From: a virus
Taxonomy: Duplodnaviria; Heunggongvirae; Uroviricota; Caudoviricetes
Strand: one strand, 5' to 3'
DNA: 64,000 nt
Virus record (IMG/VR): IMGVR_UViG_3300042887_002597
Coordinates: 46,234 to 110,233 of that record
A program made the position numbers and the translations under genes. Below, one piece after another: positions 51,932 through 59,165 of the stretch; the stretch's first letter is position 1, and every line of letters starts with the position of its first letter. Under the pieces are notes generated by a model that was not told the origin of the DNA, made no database searches, and saw only the letters and a list, made by a program, of their open reading frames with translations.

Positions 51932-52312
51932 TTATCCTTTAATTACTTGTTTTTTTTCTCTTAGTGTATCAAAATAAGTGTCAATCAACTTATCGATACG
52001 CTTATCTGTGTACGAGTTGCTTTGCGTTACTGAGTCAGTGATTTGATCGTTGATTTTCGCATGCATCTCACGTTGAAGATCGGTTATCTGATGATAAGTG
52101 CCTTGCTCCAGAGCTTCATGTTTGCGATCAATCTCATCACGTAGACGATGAACGTTTTCCCACACATTACGATCATTATTCATGATCCACTCTTCTTGCT
52201 GTTTGATTGCTTTTAACAATTTTGTAATCTTAACTATACCCCAAACAATTGCAGCTACAAAAGCAACTCCAATAATCGAGAGCATACCTAAAACGAAATA
52301 TATTGTTTCCAT
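51932..52312 (-). CDS. membrane-anchored coiled-coil protein
   Basis: 126 aa with an N-terminal TM. Confidence 0.55.
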   Translation of the reverse strand: METIYFVLGMLSIIGVAFVAAIVWGIVKITKLLKAIKQQEEWIMNNDRNVWENVHRLRDEIDRKHEALEQGTYHQITDLQREMHAKINDQITDSVTQSNSYTDKRIDKLIDTYFDTLREKKQVIKG

Positions 52313-52360
52313 ATTAGTTCCTCCTATTTGTTAATATGTCAAAGAGCGCATCCACAATTG

Positions 52361-52434
52361 TGCGCCTTCCTGGGATCGAACCAGGTACCTACTGATTATG
52401 AGTCAGTTGCTCTAACCTAATGAGCTAAAGGCGC
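52361..52434 (-). tRNA. tRNA-Met/Ile2 (anticodon CAT)
   Basis: Folded by hand on the minus strand: acceptor GCGCCTT/AAGGCGC, D-arm GCTC-ATTAGGTTA-GAGC, anticodon arm ACTGA-CTCATAA-TCAGT, T-arm CCTGG-TTCGATC-CCAGG, discriminator A. Confidence 0.8.
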
Positions 52435-52435
52435 T

Positions 52436-52530
52436 ACTGTACTCAAGGAAGGAATTGAACCTTCACGAAGATCCTCGCTGGAAAGGCTATAACAGTTTGG
52501 ATAACTGCTTATACCTTAAGCAATCCTTTT
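52436..52530 (-). tRNA. aberrant tRNA-like element (T-arm GAAGG-TTCAATT-CCTTC present; rest does not fold canonically)
   Basis: Good T-arm and a possible acceptor GCTTAAG/CTTGAGT with 2 G-U pairs, but no clean D or anticodon arm by hand. About 82-90 nt, so possibly a type II tRNA, a pseudo-tRNA or an interrupted tRNA. Confidence 0.25.
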
Positions 52531-52811
52531 ATAGATCTTCTCGTTTGCTCCCCTTAGCGTCTACCATCGACCAGGGCCTCCTGATCCTTTCGCCACTTGA
52601 GTATGTTGCCCCACCTGAGATTAGGGTGAGTAGTTGTATCGGTTTGTTTCTTTCAAAAAACCTGCTGGGCATCCCCGTTAAAAAAAGTCAACACTCTTGG
52701 GAGGAGTTGTGTAGTTCTCCTTTGTTCCCACTATGTCCCACTCGCGCCGTAGACATTCTGCGAAATCATTGTTTAAGTCTTGATTCAAAGACTCTGAGTA
52801 TCTCTTACTCA

Positions 52812-52911
52812 TTGCAATCAGGATAGGATTCGAACCTATATTAACGCAAGTAGATTGGTACTGACCTTTCGGTTACTCCCGTTTCGCTGTGCTACCCAAT
52901 TACACCACCTG
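52812..52911 (-). tRNA. aberrant or intron-containing tRNA-like element (about 100 nt)
   Basis: Acceptor AGTCAGG/CCTGATT, D-arm GTGT-AATTGGGTA-GCAC and T-arm ATAGG-TTCGAAT-CCTAT fold. About 27 extra nt sit where the anticodon arm and variable region should be, and I could not identify an anticodon. Confidence 0.3.
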
Positions 52912-52929
52912 ACTGTGTTTTATTTTCTG

Positions 52930-53001
52930 TAGTCGATACGGGAATCGAACCCGTGTTACCAGAATGAAAATCTGAGGTCCTGACCCCTAGACGAATCGAC
53001 C
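52930..53001 (-). tRNA. tRNA-Glu (anticodon TTC)
   Basis: Acceptor GGTCGAT/ATCGACT (G-U at 1:72), D-arm GTCT-AGGGGTCA-GGAC, anticodon arm TCAGA-TTTTCAT-TCTGG, T-arm ACGGG-TTCGATT-CCCGT. 72 nt. Confidence 0.75.
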
Positions 53002-53007
53002 TTATAG

Positions 53008-53079
53008 AGCTTCCTGTAGGAATCGAACCCACTTATCCTGAGTACAAATCAGGTGCATCACCTTTTATGCTTAAGAAGC
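53008..53079 (-). tRNA. tRNA-Thr (anticodon TGT)
   Basis: Acceptor GCTTCTT/AGGAAGC, D-arm GCAT-AAAAGGTG-ATGC, anticodon arm CCTGA-TTTGTAC-TCAGG, T-arm GTGGG-TTCGATT-CCTAC. 72 nt. Confidence 0.8.
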
Positions 53080-53084
53080 TTTAG

Positions 53085-53158
53085 TTGCGGGAGCAGGAAT
53101 CGAACCTGCGTCATTTGGCTTATGAGACCAAGCTGGTACCTTCTCCAGTCCACCCCGC
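53085..53158 (-). tRNA. second CAT-anticodon tRNA (Met or lysidine-Ile) with non-canonical acceptor stem
   Basis: D-arm CTGG-AGAAGGTA-CCAG, anticodon arm TTGGT-CTCATAA-GCCAA and T-arm GCAGG-TTCGATT-CCTGC are clean. The acceptor GCGGGG(T)/TCCCGC pairs 6 bp with one extra or bulged nt. Confidence 0.55.
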
Positions 53159-54375
53159 CACATTAGAAAAAGCCTGAGACTACAGCTTATATGCTAGATC
53201 TTTTGTCGGATTATTGATTCCCTTCTTGTCCAGTTCCTTTTGAGAACTATTCTAGCAATGCCGATTGGTTAGACCAATCACTCCTTGAGCTACTTGTTTT
53301 GAACTACTCTCGTCGTACTCCATCTGTTCAACTCTGCCGAGCTGATTCATCCTTGCGGGATTACAAACTTTTAAAACGAATCACCTTAGGCTTGCGACCT
53401 TCGATGGCATCCGACAGCCGGATACTATGTAGGCATCTTTCGTTTGTAGCTGGTAAGCGCTTGGGCTTTGTTAATTTTTAGTTTTTTGCTAATCATATGC
53501 AAAGTTGTATCGGTTGCAGATCGTGAAAGTAGTGGCTTACCTTTAAGCTAACCCATCTTTTGGACGAGTCAATACTCAACTACTCTCTGAAGTGTCCCCA
53601 CCTCCATACTTTGAGAATTCTACGCAAACAAACCTTGGTGGGTTTATCTACGGTGCAGTAACGACACCACTCGTACACTGACGTTGCCTTTCGGCTTTAA
53701 GATTCCTCTCATATTGGAACCCGTAATCATATACTCGGATAAGCATATTCCTCACGTAAAAGTCAAGTTCCTATAGGTTATTCTTATTGCTTTTCCAAGC
53801 TCAACCAGATGACCTGCATCACCCAGTTACCATTCCACTTCCCCTACAGTGTTACCCTCAGGTACAAAGGAATGGTAATATCCTACTTGCCTACTCGAGC
53901 TCCTTGCGAAGCCGCAAACCACATTAACCAATGCAATTCACATTATCCTGGTTTCCCAGTTTATTTAACGACCATAGGCGGCCGTTGTATCGCTACTCGC
54001 TTGTCATGGGCGAACCAACGTGGTGGGAGTAGCAATGTCTTAATACTTTAAAGAACGTTTTGGTCTTTCGTGTGACCGTTATATTCTAAATATACGACCT
54101 TTTTTTCGAAAGGGCAACTTTTATTTAGTTTTTTTCTTCTTTCTTTCTGGTGGTGCATTGTGATATGCTATCTCCACCTTAATAGGACCATTCTTAAACT
54201 TTGCTAAATCGTAGGTCCAAGTTGACGTAGTATCCTCACCTGCGTATACAACTGAGTACTTTTCTCTTCTTAATGCCATAATGATGCAATTGCTTTGAAT
54301 ATAGTTGCTACACTGAACATTACGATCATTAGTACACCAGTCAATGCCGCTACTGCGAATATGACGTCTCCTATG

Positions 54376-54762
54376 TTAGTTTTTCTCTTCATCTCCTATA
54401 ATATAAGTTATCGTATGTTCTCCGTTTATATACTTACGGATGGAAGCTCTCACAATATCATCCTTATGGATTTCAATCTCCTTCATTAAGAACTCCTCAC
54501 TATTCTCTTCGTGTAATGTACCAGCATCTGCTACACCACCATTGTACTCAACATAGTAAGCTCCGTATGGATTATTCTCAACCATAGTCTCTACCTCAGG
54601 TATCCATCCTTCTTTTCCCGCTTCATCTAAATTGGTCACAAAGGTCTGCTTTGAGTATCCACACATATTACAAAAGATATGTTCGCTCCATCGATCCATG
54701 TCGATAAAAGCATCCTTTGCTTTGCAGTGAGGACAGTCTATATAATCTATTACGCTTGCCAT
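54376..54762 (-). CDS. small zinc-ribbon protein
   Basis: The track ORF runs to 54777 with a non-ATG start. The first ATG gives MASVIDYIDCPHCKAKDAF ... CNMCGYS. Confidence 0.55.
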   Translation of the reverse strand: MASVIDYIDCPHCKAKDAFIDMDRWSEHIFCNMCGYSKQTFVTNLDEAGKEGWIPEVETMVENNPYGAYYVEYNGGVADAGTLHEENSEEFLMKEIEIHKDDIVRASIRKYINGEHTITYIIGDEEKN

Positions 54763-54780
54763 ATTGTAAATATACAAAAG

Positions 54781-55584
54781 TTATTTCAATTTTCCAACAG
54801 AAAATTCATTATTCTCATAGATTAGATAAGTGTTCGTTGTATCAAAGGTATCAATGAAGTAATATCTACCACCCGTTGCTTTCCCTTCAATATCAATCTT
54901 TCTCACCTTAGTATGCCCTACTACCTGGATATAGTCTGTCTTCAGGAACGTGTCTCTGTTTCCAGCTATCAAAGCCTGTGGGCGAATCCAAATAGGTGTC
55001 TGCGTCTTAGAGTTACCATATGGATCGATTCCGTAGAACATGAAGCGATTAGGTTGGTACTTCCAGATAGCATTGATGAAATCTGACACACTACCAGGAT
55101 CTACTCCTTTCTCATAGCTGTTTTGGTACGTTAGCCAATCATGTCCAACGCCAGCATGCGTACATAGTATGCCATCAAACTCATAGGCCATCTGCATAAG
55201 ATGCTCATTGTCCTTCAATAGTTGTCTATTGATAGGAGCTGCTCCTACTCGGAATCCTGAGTACGTCTCGCCACCTGGGAAGTAGTGATAGTCGTGATTG
55301 CCAATCAGCAAAATGACTTCACACTCCCCTTTCTTCTTGAACTCAATAATCTCCTTGAAGTTATATTGCTGTTCAACTGGCTCAATGTCAAAGCTATCAA
55401 AGTAATCTCCAATGAAGATAACTCGGTCAGGCTTCTCTTGGGCTACAATGTCCTTCCAGATGCTACGACCGTGTACATCTCCTATGAATACTGTTTTTAG
55501 TATGTCCTTGTGTTCCATTCGTAGTTTACGTATAAAAAGGCAGCATTCACTACAATCATAAACAATCCGTGTTTCCACATGCAT
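54781..55584 (-). CDS. calcineurin-like metallophosphoesterase (Ser/Thr phosphatase / Ap4A hydrolase-like)
   Basis: 267 aa. Signature motifs GDVHG, IFIGDYFD, GNHDYH, and a later HAG. Confidence 0.65.
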   Translation of the reverse strand: MHVETRIVYDCSECCLFIRKLRMEHKDILKTVFIGDVHGRSIWKDIVAQEKPDRVIFIGDYFDSFDIEPVEQQYNFKEIIEFKKKGECEVILLIGNHDYHYFPGGETYSGFRVGAAPINRQLLKDNEHLMQMAYEFDGILCTHAGVGHDWLTYQNSYEKGVDPGSVSDFINAIWKYQPNRFMFYGIDPYGNSKTQTPIWIRPQALIAGNRDTFLKTDYIQVVGHTKVRKIDIEGKATGGRYYFIDTFDTTNTYLIYENNEFSVGKLK

Positions 55585-56610: not shown

Positions 56611-57054
56611 CTAGTATTGTTTTATATCATTATTCTTATCTAACAAGCCTCTACCGTGCTTCTTAACTCTATCCCAGTACCTCTCCTTCACGTGTTCATG
56701 GATAGGTCTTGGCTTACCATCGTCATCAATGCGCACAAACACCATCTTTGTATGGGTAACCGTCTCCTGTTCTCCAGTATACACGTTATGTTTACGTACA
56801 TCAATCATAATAGTCACTGACGTATTGCCAAAAGCAATCACCTTACCATATATCTTCAGGATGCTTCCTACCTTAACTGCTCGTTTGAATATAAGCTCGT
56901 CAATCTTTAAGGTGACTATCTTTTGCGTATCACATATTTGCGATGCATATGAAGCAGCAGCATCGTCAATAAGCGAGAGAATAGTCCCACCAAACATATT
57001 ATCGTGAACTCCAATGTCTCCCTTTTTGCATATATAGGTCGTTATCAACTCCAT
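56611..57054 (-). CDS. hotdog-fold acyl-CoA thioesterase
   Basis: 147 aa. VHDNMFGGTILSLIDDAAASYA matches the 4HBT/YbgC thioesterase core. Confidence 0.6.
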   Translation of the reverse strand: MELITTYICKKGDIGVHDNMFGGTILSLIDDAAASYASQICDTQKIVTLKIDELIFKRAVKVGSILKIYGKVIAFGNTSVTIMIDVRKHNVYTGEQETVTHTKMVFVRIDDDGKPRPIHEHVKERYWDRVKKHGRGLLDKNNDIKQY

Positions 57055-58250: not shown

Positions 58251-59165
58251 TTATACTAATATACTAAATTTTTCCTTGTAAGACAACACTGCCTTCTCTT
58301 TTGCCTTGGCTTCGAACATTATATCCGCTTTCTCGAGGACTTCTTGTGGGACTTCGTCGTAGATGTAATCTGCGTGGGCTTGTATTTTTGCTGTTGAATC
58401 CTCAAATAGTCGTTTGGCGGAACTGTAATGGACGATTGGTCTTGCAGTAGTCCAAGTACTTGCAGCAAGGTGAAAACTATCCATAGCGGTGAGATCACCA
58501 GGATGGCAATTATGGTGATGGAAGTCCATAACAATAGGAATACCAACCTTACTATGTACTCGAGTATAGAGGTCATAAACCGTGTAAAGGGATGCTTTGT
58601 CGTCATTTTCAATAGTTAATCGTTTTCTAGTATGCTCATCTAATAGGTTATAATTCTCACACCACTTATCGCATACAGCCCACTTATCCTTGTAAGCTGC
58701 ACCAATGTGAATGTTAATCTTGTTGTAATGCGATGGAGCTAATTCCATCATATCAAACAACTGCGAATGTTGCCTAAGCTCTTTTATAGTTCGACGAACT
58801 ACCTCAGGCTTGCTACTAGCAAGGATATTGAAAGGTCCTGGATGAAAGGTCAGACGTAAGTTATTCTCAGTAGCAAACTTACCGATCTCTTCGCAAACAG
58901 CTTTAATCTCCTTATACTGAGGCAGTTGTTCGAGCTCATACTCGCTTTGCCAAGGAAAGATATCGCTTGGCATGCGGTAAAGTAGTATACCATTGGATAC
59001 ATTCCATTGGCAAATAGTGTAAATGTCTTTAAGATTTTGTAATGCTAACTCACCTACATAGGGTAAACCATTCTGTTGGAAGGTAGCTTTACGGCAAGTA
59101 CGACCTCCAAGGATCTTTTTCTTACCAAGTTGTGTGTTGATACAGGCATAGCCAATAGTAATCAT
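58251..59165 (-). CDS. uvsE: UV-damage endonuclease (UvdE/UvsE family)
   Basis: 304 aa. Blocks GYACIN, LRLTFHPGPFN, TIENDDK and VMDFHHHN resemble UVDE TIM-barrel endonucleases. Assignment from memory of the family motifs. Confidence 0.55.
   Translation of the reverse strand: MITIGYACINTQLGKKKILGGRTCRKATFQQNGLPYVGELALQNLKDIYTICQWNVSNGILLYRMPSDIFPWQSEYELEQLPQYKEIKAVCEEIGKFATENNLRLTFHPGPFNILASSKPEVVRRTIKELRQHSQLFDMMELAPSHYNKINIHIGAAYKDKWAVCDKWCENYNLLDEHTRKRLTIENDDKASLYTVYDLYTRVHSKVGIPIVMDFHHHNCHPGDLTAMDSFHLAASTWTTARPIVHYSSAKRLFEDSTAKIQAHADYIYDEVPQEVLEKADIMFEAKAKEKAVLSYKEKFSILV

Follow-up and report, generated by a model that had tools for sequence, protein, structure and literature searches.

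What fills a stretch of about 2 kb in a phage genome window when no minus-strand open reading frame (ORF) of 60 amino acids (aa) or more can be found in it? The stretch in question (52313-54375) belongs to a window of 64,000 nucleotides (nt) from the Caudoviricetes record IMGVR_UViG_3300042887_002597. By window we mean this whole analysed DNA, and all coordinates are positions in it; L-numbered loci are stretches of other viral contigs with which it was compared. The initial annotation, made by reading the sequence without database searches, had described an ORF-free region with four transfer RNAs (tRNAs), two malformed tRNA-like elements and about 0.9 kb of unexplained non-coding sequence. 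We consider it likely that the stretch is an island of RNA genes on the minus strand, in which a full-length GOLLD RNA is accompanied by four ordinary tRNAs and two look-alikes of tRNA-Leu that have no anticodon. Baseplate and other phage proteins are encoded in the window, and the carrier is probably a large uncultured tailed phage with a freshwater member of the Bacteroidota as host. All island features are on the minus strand. In the direction of transcription, the promoter-like site and the RNA genes are:

54089-54117, minus strand: promoter-like site, TTGCCC-17 nt-TATATT, ~100 nt upstream of the conserved GOLLD core
53171-53985, minus strand: whole GOLLD core, ~815 nt, two domains
53588-53985, minus strand: GOLLD 5' domain (the nanocage cap in env-38, a GOLLD RNA of solved structure), colinear with env-38 residues 1-~420
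53171-53587, minus strand: conserved 3' domain of GOLLD, Rfam RF02032
53084-53159, minus strand: tRNA-Met(CAU) with a G1·A72 mismatch, 12 nt past the 3' end of GOLLD; ARAGORN, Rfam 41.5 bits
53007-53079, minus strand: tRNA-Thr(UGU); ARAGORN, Rfam 56.5 bits
52929-53001, minus strand: tRNA-Glu(UUC); ARAGORN, Rfam 57.7 bits
52815-52914, minus strand: tRNA-like element 1, 100 nt, with acceptor AGUCAGG/CCUGAUU, Leu-type D-arm, T-arm and G73
52439-52602, minus strand: tRNA-like element 2, 164 nt, boundaries given by the intron mode of ARAGORN and a separate scan
52360-52434, minus strand: tRNA-Met(CAU); ARAGORN, Rfam 70 bits

GOLLD is among the largest bacterial non-coding RNAs, and the 0.9-kb stretch is almost certainly a member of this known family. 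Rfam model RF02032, which covers the conserved 3' half of GOLLD only, is matched from position 1 to 416 of 416, pseudoknot included, with 260.3 bits (gathering score 150; E = 5.6e-73). The suggestion that 53160-54060 could encode a structured RNA was thus borne out, and in the Rfam alignment a stem quoted in support of it (plus-strand CCGATTGG-TTAG-ACCAATC) corresponds to a hairpin conserved in the 3' domain of GOLLD. The GC content of this region had also been said to exceed that of its surroundings; it is indeed raised, though just slightly (0.42-0.46 versus 0.35-0.40 in the flanks). GOLLD RNAs are usually longer than 800 nt and are encoded by phages and prophages, often near tRNA islands; in env-38, the 5' region (residues 1-420) is variable and the 3' region (421-833) conserved (PMC12286853), and the D7-symmetric 14-mer nanocage of this RNA was determined by cryo-EM (PDB 9MEE; Kretsch et al. 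2025, PMC12286853). The env-38 construct sequence (PMC12286853, Supplementary Table 4; 815 nt in the machine-read copy) aligned over its full length with window positions 53985-53171, the identity being 64% for the 5' domain and 63% for the 3' domain.

Relatives of this RNA are numerous. In IMG/VR, a conserved 25-mer of the 5' domain was found in 69 stretches, and an nhmmer search with the window's GOLLD aligned 70 IMG/VR loci, most of them from ~53985 to the 3' end; the nearest is L216, with 83.6% identity. Hairpins of the 5' domain covary in a three-way alignment (CUGG-GAAA-CCAG / CCGU-GAAA-GCGG / CUAC-GAAA-GUAG). The possibility that this DNA is the remnant of a protein-coding gene or a dead spacer, the latter envisaged should Rfam hits and conservation both be missing, has in its favour that the minus strand here contains no ORF of 60 aa or more. 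The outcome on both counts was the opposite. A full-length covariance-model match at E = 5.6e-73, colinearity with a structurally solved GOLLD and 70 homologues with covarying hairpins leave that explanation a practically negligible chance.

In the closer GOLLD relatives (L139, L180, L197 and others), a further ~100-130 nt upstream are also conserved, including the promoter-like site. This site is the sole sigma-70-like match on the minus strand within 52200-54500, its TTG...TATATT block is kept in the alignment with L139, and it presumably functions as a promoter. Between it and the GOLLD core lies a leader of ~95 nt (53986-54081, minus strand) with a hairpin, GGUC-ACACGAAA-GACC, which is kept only in the closer relatives. 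Since the leader is conserved among these, the mature RNA may measure ~910 nt rather than 815 nt. Downstream, a tRNA-Met(CAT) follows GOLLD at 12-24 nt in 16 of the 60 homologues with a complete 3' end.

Compared with env-38, the window's GOLLD shares the full-length match to the 3'-domain model, a 5' domain of the same type, a similar length (~815 nt versus 833 nt), phage encoding and a position abutting tRNA genes that include tRNA-Met. It differs in being only ~63% identical, in being known here from its sequence, whereas the oligomer was seen for env-38, and in having a conserved ~95-nt leader between the promoter-like site and the core. Its setting differs as well, being a probable Bacteroidota phage from freshwater-type metagenomes, whereas other GOLLD RNAs come from Lactobacillales, Actinomycetota or marine samples. 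The window's copy and its 70 relatives would thus place GOLLD of the env-38 type in large freshwater phages, probably of Bacteroidota, and the conserved leaders and frequent downstream tRNA-Met may help in choosing an experimental system. Two uncultured phage genomes of ~640 kb (LR756502.1 and LR745206.1) match the 5' domain (~53684-53983) with 67-70% identity, so this GOLLD type also occurs in very large phages.

Next to GOLLD, the four tRNAs that had been folded by hand were recovered by both ARAGORN and Rfam, including the imperfect acceptor of the second tRNA-Met, and their identification is virtually beyond doubt. The tRNA-Met at 52360-52434 is 78-96% identical to the tRNA-Met of many phage records and loci. 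The G1·A72 pair of the other one (53084-53159) recalls the 1-72 mismatch of bacterial initiator tRNAs; the three anticodon-stem G-C pairs are absent from it.

The two further tRNA-shaped elements, noted earlier for their perfect T-arms, also proved real. Both have a 7-bp acceptor, a D-arm with G18G19, and a 5-bp T-stem with its T-loop, and neither has an anticodon stem of 5 bp with a loop of 7 nt and U33, or an anticodon that is conserved. We hold it very likely that they are tRNA-like RNAs that do not decode and are under selection. Element 1, whose length had been put at about 100 nt, measures exactly that by its Rfam boundaries (52815-52914) and passes the Rfam tRNA threshold with 41.5 bits (threshold 29). 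Its inner anticodon arm is replaced by 38 inserted nt, a module (GGGAGUAACCGAAAGGUCAGUACC...) closed by a 3-bp stub of the anticodon stem, and it has U48.

Element 2 is larger than first thought, its span being 164 nt (52439-52602) and not the 82-90 nt within 52436-52530 given to it initially. It consists of an acceptor ACUCAAG/CUUGAGU, a Leu-type D-arm (UGGCGAA...AUGGUAGACGC) whose D-loop is interrupted by a 7-bp hairpin (GAUCAGG-AGGC-CCUGGUC), a rod-like centre of ~93 nt, U48, a T-arm GAAGG-UUCAAUU-CCUUC and A73. The 3' strand CUUGAGU forms seven Watson-Crick pairs with ACUCAAG (52602-52596), which is followed by U8-G9 and the D-arm; its alternative partner, GCUUAAG at 52521, gives two G·U pairs and no D-arm. 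A short form (52440-52522), matched by the tRNA-Sec model at a non-significant E = 0.54, was accordingly rejected for the 164-nt form, which folds better than its shuffles (z = -2.3). D-loop hairpin insertions like this one recur in L019, L092, L093 and L116. A 154-nt element in L017 (1959-2112) is positioned like element 2 relative to a conserved tRNA-Met; its acceptor is AGUCAGG/CCUGACU, and it differs from element 2 by compensatory changes at acceptor pairs 2 and 6.

Both elements could in principle be decoding tRNAs interrupted by short introns, with element 1 as an amber suppressor tRNA(CUA), element 2 as a tRNA-Asn(GUU) and the recoding of stop codons as their possible purpose; suppressor and intron-bearing tRNAs had been among the first proposals. 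In its default mode ARAGORN calls neither element. With its intron option it calls a tRNA(CUA) with a 27-nt intron at 52814-52914 and a tRNA-Asn(GUU) with a 79-nt intron at 52439-52602. The anticodon stem so proposed for element 1 contains an A·G mismatch, and position 37 is C. The CUA context, ...AAUCUACUUG, occurs in the window and in L017 only; the other five of the seven homologues aligned read AAUCACUUG, AAACACUUG or AAACAACUUG. Bacterial tRNA introns are, to our knowledge, group I introns, usually of 200 nt or more and thus far longer than 27-79 nt, and within 52250-54450 no group I intron or self-cleaving ribozyme was matched in Rfam at E ≤ 5 (the inserts span 27-93 nt). Across the related elements described below, the anticodons assigned by ARAGORN are scattered, and many have 2 or 4 nt. 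Recoding itself finds no counterpart in the window's genes, which fit the standard code best: under that code, ATG-started ORFs of at least 60 aa occupy 85% of the minus strand and terminate with TAG in 6 of 94 cases, and the mean ORF becomes shorter when any stop codon is read as sense. We therefore judge short introns in decoding tRNAs to be highly improbable, and such elements should not be annotated as suppressor tRNAs or taken as evidence of recoding.

The comparison of element 1 with its homologues points instead to a maintained structure. L017, a related phage contig, holds a copy 93.5% identical to it (1734-1833), and the intergenic DNA adjacent to this copy does not align with that of the window. 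A search of IMG/VR viral contigs with the central motif of element 1 yielded variants, of which seven sequences were aligned. In this alignment 97.8% of the cells are paired, and 10 of 26 scaffold pairs show changes in both bases. No shuffle out of 500 attains these values, and controls in which the strands were slid pair at 29-41%. The search pattern fixed 21 bases of the inner helices, so these helices never vary and are uninformative. The subfamily nevertheless carries its 38-nt module on two wholly different acceptor stems, AGUCAGG/CCUGACU and AUGGGAG/CUCCUUU, and the 3-bp stub covaries (GCG/CGU, ACG/CGU, CGG/CCG).

Element 1 and element 2 belong to a far larger set of sequences. A scaffold pattern (AGTCAGGTGGNGNAAT, a gap of 50-80 nt, GGTTCGARTCCTRTCCTGA) matched at least 120 viral stretches; a wider gap gave at least 139 unique sequences of 71-180 nt, and the inclusion of near variants at least 188 distinct elements, which fall into at least 151 clusters by centre sequence. 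Among the matches listed, to which the family-wide figures here and below refer, a near-invariant top half of tRNA-Leu type is combined with ~150 unrelated centres. The elements come from uncultured phages, probably with Bacteroidota as hosts, and lie within their tRNA islands; in 126 of 129 loci they share the strand of the tRNAs, and a locus can hold up to 9 copies. ARAGORN recognises 32 of 139, with scattered anticodons and many malformed loops, and labels elements with random anticodons or, in intron mode, as tRNA-Pyl. Phages that bear them also carry a normal tRNA-Leu(UAA) with a GGCCGG acceptor stem. Contigs that were found through a neighbouring protein, and were thus not selected for the element, carry elements too (L017, L019 and L022-L025). 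The same D-arm and T-arm occur with other acceptor stems (AUUUAGA, UGUAGUG, UGUCAGG, AUGGGAG, ACUCAAG); the loose tRNA-like detector used gave false positives, so its counts for acceptors other than AGUCAGG call for caution. Its matches in L219 and L194, for example, were discarded as ordinary tRNA-Met genes with chance upstream pairing.

Folding of single sequences is uninformative for these elements (z ~ -0.7 to -0.9). Within subfamilies, the centres are conserved and covary, as in a five-member subfamily that forms a cloverleaf with an 8-bp helix at the position of the anticodon stem and four compensatory pairs. These observations bear on the possibility, raised from the start, that the elements are decayed copies, that is, functionless pseudo-tRNAs arising from duplicated tRNA-Leu genes whose middles have drifted. 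The missing anticodon arm and the failure of default ARAGORN to call the elements would fit decay, as would the hypervariable, A-rich and overall weakly structured centres, the absence of the block containing both elements from the closest relative, L216, and the lack of relatives of element 2. Decay, however, would erode all parts, and the acceptor, D-arm, T-arm, U48 and A73 are kept across ~150 types of centre. The stems stay paired through compensatory changes, centres are conserved and covary within subfamilies, and element 1 is nearly the same in two phages whose adjacent intergenic DNA does not align. A scaffold maintained in this way in a large family makes decay quite improbable.

This large family of tRNA-Leu-derived RNAs is apparently undescribed. 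No description of the scaffold was found in Rfam, GenBank phage records or the searchable literature; its 3'-end sequence was likewise not found in the searchable literature, where shorter 10-mer matches, among those listed, were unrelated. No GenBank phage record contains both scaffold ends together, and blastn with element 1 gave no match among cultured phages. The exact 3' 24-mer was found among 185,579 species genomes in 18 contigs, all from metagenome-assembled genomes and none from an isolate; about half of these contigs are labelled Bacteroidota, including Chitinophagia, Sediminibacterium, Flavobacterium and Saprospiraceae. For the scaffold of element 2, an exact 24-mer search of IMG/VR viral contigs gave 0 matches, and a 21-mer search of JGI metagenomes gave one unrelated tRNA-like sequence only. 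In an Rfam E-value scan of the window region and seven element-rich loci, the elements matched tRNA models only. The centres of elements 1 and 2 have a longest complementarity of 11 nt to the 64-kb window, within the range of shuffled sequences, so no antisense target emerged there. Clustering of ORFs over 120 element-bearing loci, in search of a partner protein, gave no family present in more than 15 loci.

Long tRNA-like elements of a related appearance were also seen. Two of them, L190:77-227 (151 nt) and L223:2144-2314 (171 nt), represent a type that recurs in five contigs with GOLLD, at ~1.3 kb and 2.6 kb upstream of its 3' end, with acceptors UGUAGUG or UGUCAGG, a Leu-type D-arm, G73 and centres sharing CUCCUGUCUCG...GGGGUAGACCACC. 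In addition, a phage tRNA island with five tRNA-like elements contains another orphan RNA motif, freshwater-1 RNA (RF02979; L036:4124-4186, plus strand), at 70.1 bits, just below the threshold of 72.

What has been retained in the elements resembles leucine tRNAs. RNase P, RNase Z and the CCA-adding enzyme rely on the top half of tRNA. Over positions 5-26, a typical element shows 100% identity to an annotated tRNA-Leu of the enterobacterium Salmonella, and U48 and A73, neither of which was fixed by the search pattern, are present in 132 and 137 (91%), respectively, of 151 centre clusters. In Escherichia coli, leucine identity depends crucially on A73 and on neither the anticodon nor a long variable arm; A15-U48, G18G19 and A20a are essential for leucyl-tRNA synthetase (LeuRS), and G73 is an antideterminant for it in tRNA-Ser (PMC9976931). 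The LeuRS features A15-U48, G18G19, A20a and the elbow of D- and T-loops are retained in the elements, with the D-loop of element 2 interrupted by its hairpin; position 73 is A in element 2 and G in element 1. The match of the retained parts to the LeuRS recognition set suggests that elements may be chargeable and yet unable to decode. Compared with a bacterial tRNA-Leu, they share the identical segment and the LeuRS identity set (A14, A15, G18G19, U48, T-loop and, in element 2 and most of the family, A73). They differ in having neither an anticodon nor an anticodon stem of 5 bp with a loop of 7 nt, in lacking a regular long variable arm, and in their first pair, A1-U72.

The elements might alternatively serve as processing punctuation only: their top halves would recruit RNase P and RNase Z to cut the island transcript, freeing the neighbouring tRNAs, GOLLD and the mRNAs of small ORFs, and their centres would be filler. 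Such a role would suit several observations: conservation across the family is confined to the top half, a conserved 44-aa ORF has its start codon 2 nt past the end of element 1, and small ORFs, tRNAs and elements appear to be shuffled as cassettes between related islands. Punctuation, however, would depend on shape rather than on sequence, which leaves unexplained why the Leu-specific D-arm sequence, U48 and A73 have been preserved. Nor would filler be expected to be conserved and to covary within subfamilies, or the 38-nt module of element 1 to be found on two different acceptor stems, and ordinary tRNAs already flank most junctions. We regard punctuation alone as unlikely, with a modest chance of being right.

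Our working model remains that of processed, possibly chargeable RNAs, because the retained top half is what RNase P, RNase Z, the CCA-adding enzyme and LeuRS recognise. We infer co-transcription, processing, cage formation, charging and a function of the module in the following way. Transcription would start near 54117-54089, and its first product would be the full-length GOLLD RNA, made up of the ~95-nt leader and the core (53985-53171). By homology to env-38, this RNA may fold into two domains and self-assemble into a 14-subunit cage. From 12 bases past its 3' end, the same transcript would contain tRNA-Met, tRNA-Thr, tRNA-Glu, element 1, the 44-aa ORF, element 2 and the last tRNA-Met, and host RNase P and RNase Z would excise the tRNA-shaped genes from this precursor. 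The elements, having kept the tRNA-Leu top half (A14, A15, G18G19, U48, T-arm) and exchanged the anticodon and variable arms for an unrelated module, would end as stable RNAs that are processed like tRNAs, may accept leucine, present a variable module and are unable to read codons. We lean towards accepting that the elements are processed like tRNAs; leucylation of typical family members is more doubtful. Equally tentative is the broader proposal that they form a class of natural tRNA scaffolds, in which a processed, LeuRS-charged top half carries one of more than 150 interchangeable modules.

Several observations weigh against parts of this account. Element 1 itself carries G73 and a G2·U71 pair, and since G73 is a LeuRS antideterminant in tRNA-Ser, it may not be chargeable. 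The constancy of the AGUCAGG ends was partly built in by the search pattern. Across the family, centres are A-rich (34%) and weakly structured (mean z = -0.74), and a closing stem is no commoner in them than in shuffled controls. For the centre of element 2, which lacks close relatives, sequence comparison offers no support. L216 lacks the ~490-nt block of element 1, the 44-aa ORF and element 2, which makes this block dispensable or recently gained. Among the 70 GOLLD homologue loci, just L139 and L218 carry an element of the AGUCAGG type. Finally, the assignment of the host is based solely on the labels of metagenome-assembled genomes and one promoter-like motif.

Should the model hold, leucine-charged RNAs that do not decode could act as a sink or a reporter for LeuRS, EF-Tu or tRNA-targeting defence nucleases. 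They could also donate leucine outside translation or deliver the module to a partner, conceivably the co-encoded GOLLD cage, for which tRNAs have been proposed as contents. Processing and charging, if they occur, would make them a natural equivalent of engineered tRNA scaffolds and a phage parallel to plant-virus tRNA-like structures. The family also suggests that phage tRNA islands encode many tRNA-shaped RNAs which tRNA finders skip or mislabel.

Among known systems, the nearest analogue is RNA C and RNA D of phage T4 (species 1 and 2, 139 and 119 nt), and the resemblance is one in kind only. These too are stable non-tRNA RNAs in the size range of 100-170 nt within a phage tRNA cluster and on its strand, and RNA C has at its end a T-arm without mismatches (CCGGG-UUCGAAU-CCCGG) together with an acceptor-like stem. 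In contrast to the elements, RNA C has no D-arm of tRNA-Leu type and an imperfect acceptor stem, and no sequence similarity between either T4 RNA and the window's elements was detected. T4 has two such RNAs, whereas the family described here has one scaffold, ~150 centres and up to 9 copies per locus. The function of RNA C and D is still unknown (PMC3014915), and the elements might give a handle on this 50-year-old question.

A tRNA top half joined to a non-tRNA module is also shared with transfer-messenger RNA (tmRNA), the 3' tRNA-like structures of plant viruses, engineered tRNA scaffolds, in which the anticodon arm is replaced by a cargo RNA, and YrlA. The elements lack the defining features of each of these. 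Unlike the plant-virus structures, they are not at a genome 3' end, and their topology is opposite to that of YrlA (PMC4201824), which ends on the anticodon side; the Rfam YrlA model had no match in the window region or the seven element-rich loci. A tmRNA was considered and rejected: ARAGORN finds none in tmRNA mode, pair 3-70 is U-A and not G3·U70, and there is no tag ORF.

The description of the island as ORF-free holds for minus-strand ORFs of 60 aa or more; two shorter ones, of 44 and 52 aa, are conserved as proteins in other phage contigs. The small ORFs are:

54270-54392: 40-aa ORF, resembling a membrane protein
54121-54279, minus strand: 52-aa ORF upstream of the promoter-like site, with tblastn matches in L196, L216, L154 and L017
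52678-52812, minus strand: 44-aa ORF starting 2 nt after tRNA-like element 1, conserved by tblastn

The relatives of the 44-aa ORF are in L055 (79.5% identity over 44 aa), L204 (76%), L112 and L104, and in each of these four contigs the ORF lies within a phage tRNA island. Pfam gave no match for the 44-aa or the 52-aa ORF. The latter is probably a real small gene, judging from its conservation, so the island would start below it, and the purely non-coding part runs over ~52313-54120, minus the 44-aa ORF.

The composition of the island varies among relatives. In L216 the order is GOLLD, tRNA-Met, a homologue of the 52-aa ORF and tRNA-Glu, with the second tRNA-Met and the 126-aa gene immediately behind. 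L017 has element 1, the long element and tRNA-Met, and no GOLLD. The block missing from L216, the content of L017 and the occurrence of the 44-aa ORF in other islands together suggest that tRNAs, tRNA-like elements, small ORFs and GOLLD behave as cassettes shuffled between related islands. A general linkage of tRNA-like elements to GOLLD was considered and rejected, as AGUCAGG-type elements are present in 2 of the 70 GOLLD loci. No close relative of the window was found among cultured phages by megablast of 24 kb of it.

Just upstream of the island, a gene at 54781-55584 (minus strand) encodes a 267-aa calcineurin-like metallophosphoesterase (Pfam Metallophos, E = 1.3e-10), which also has a weak PHROG match to an RNA-ligase family. 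Homologues were found in 26 viral contigs, and where these were scanned for tRNAs, a tRNA island lies directly upstream of the gene. The protein may be an enzyme of RNA-end healing or tRNA repair. Other neighbouring genes on the minus strand encode a zinc-ribbon protein with a sub-threshold match to Lar (restriction alleviation; 54376-54777), a 4HBT thioesterase (56611-57054; E = 1.9e-13) and a UvdE UV-damage endonuclease (58251-59165; Pfam, E = 1.2e-56).

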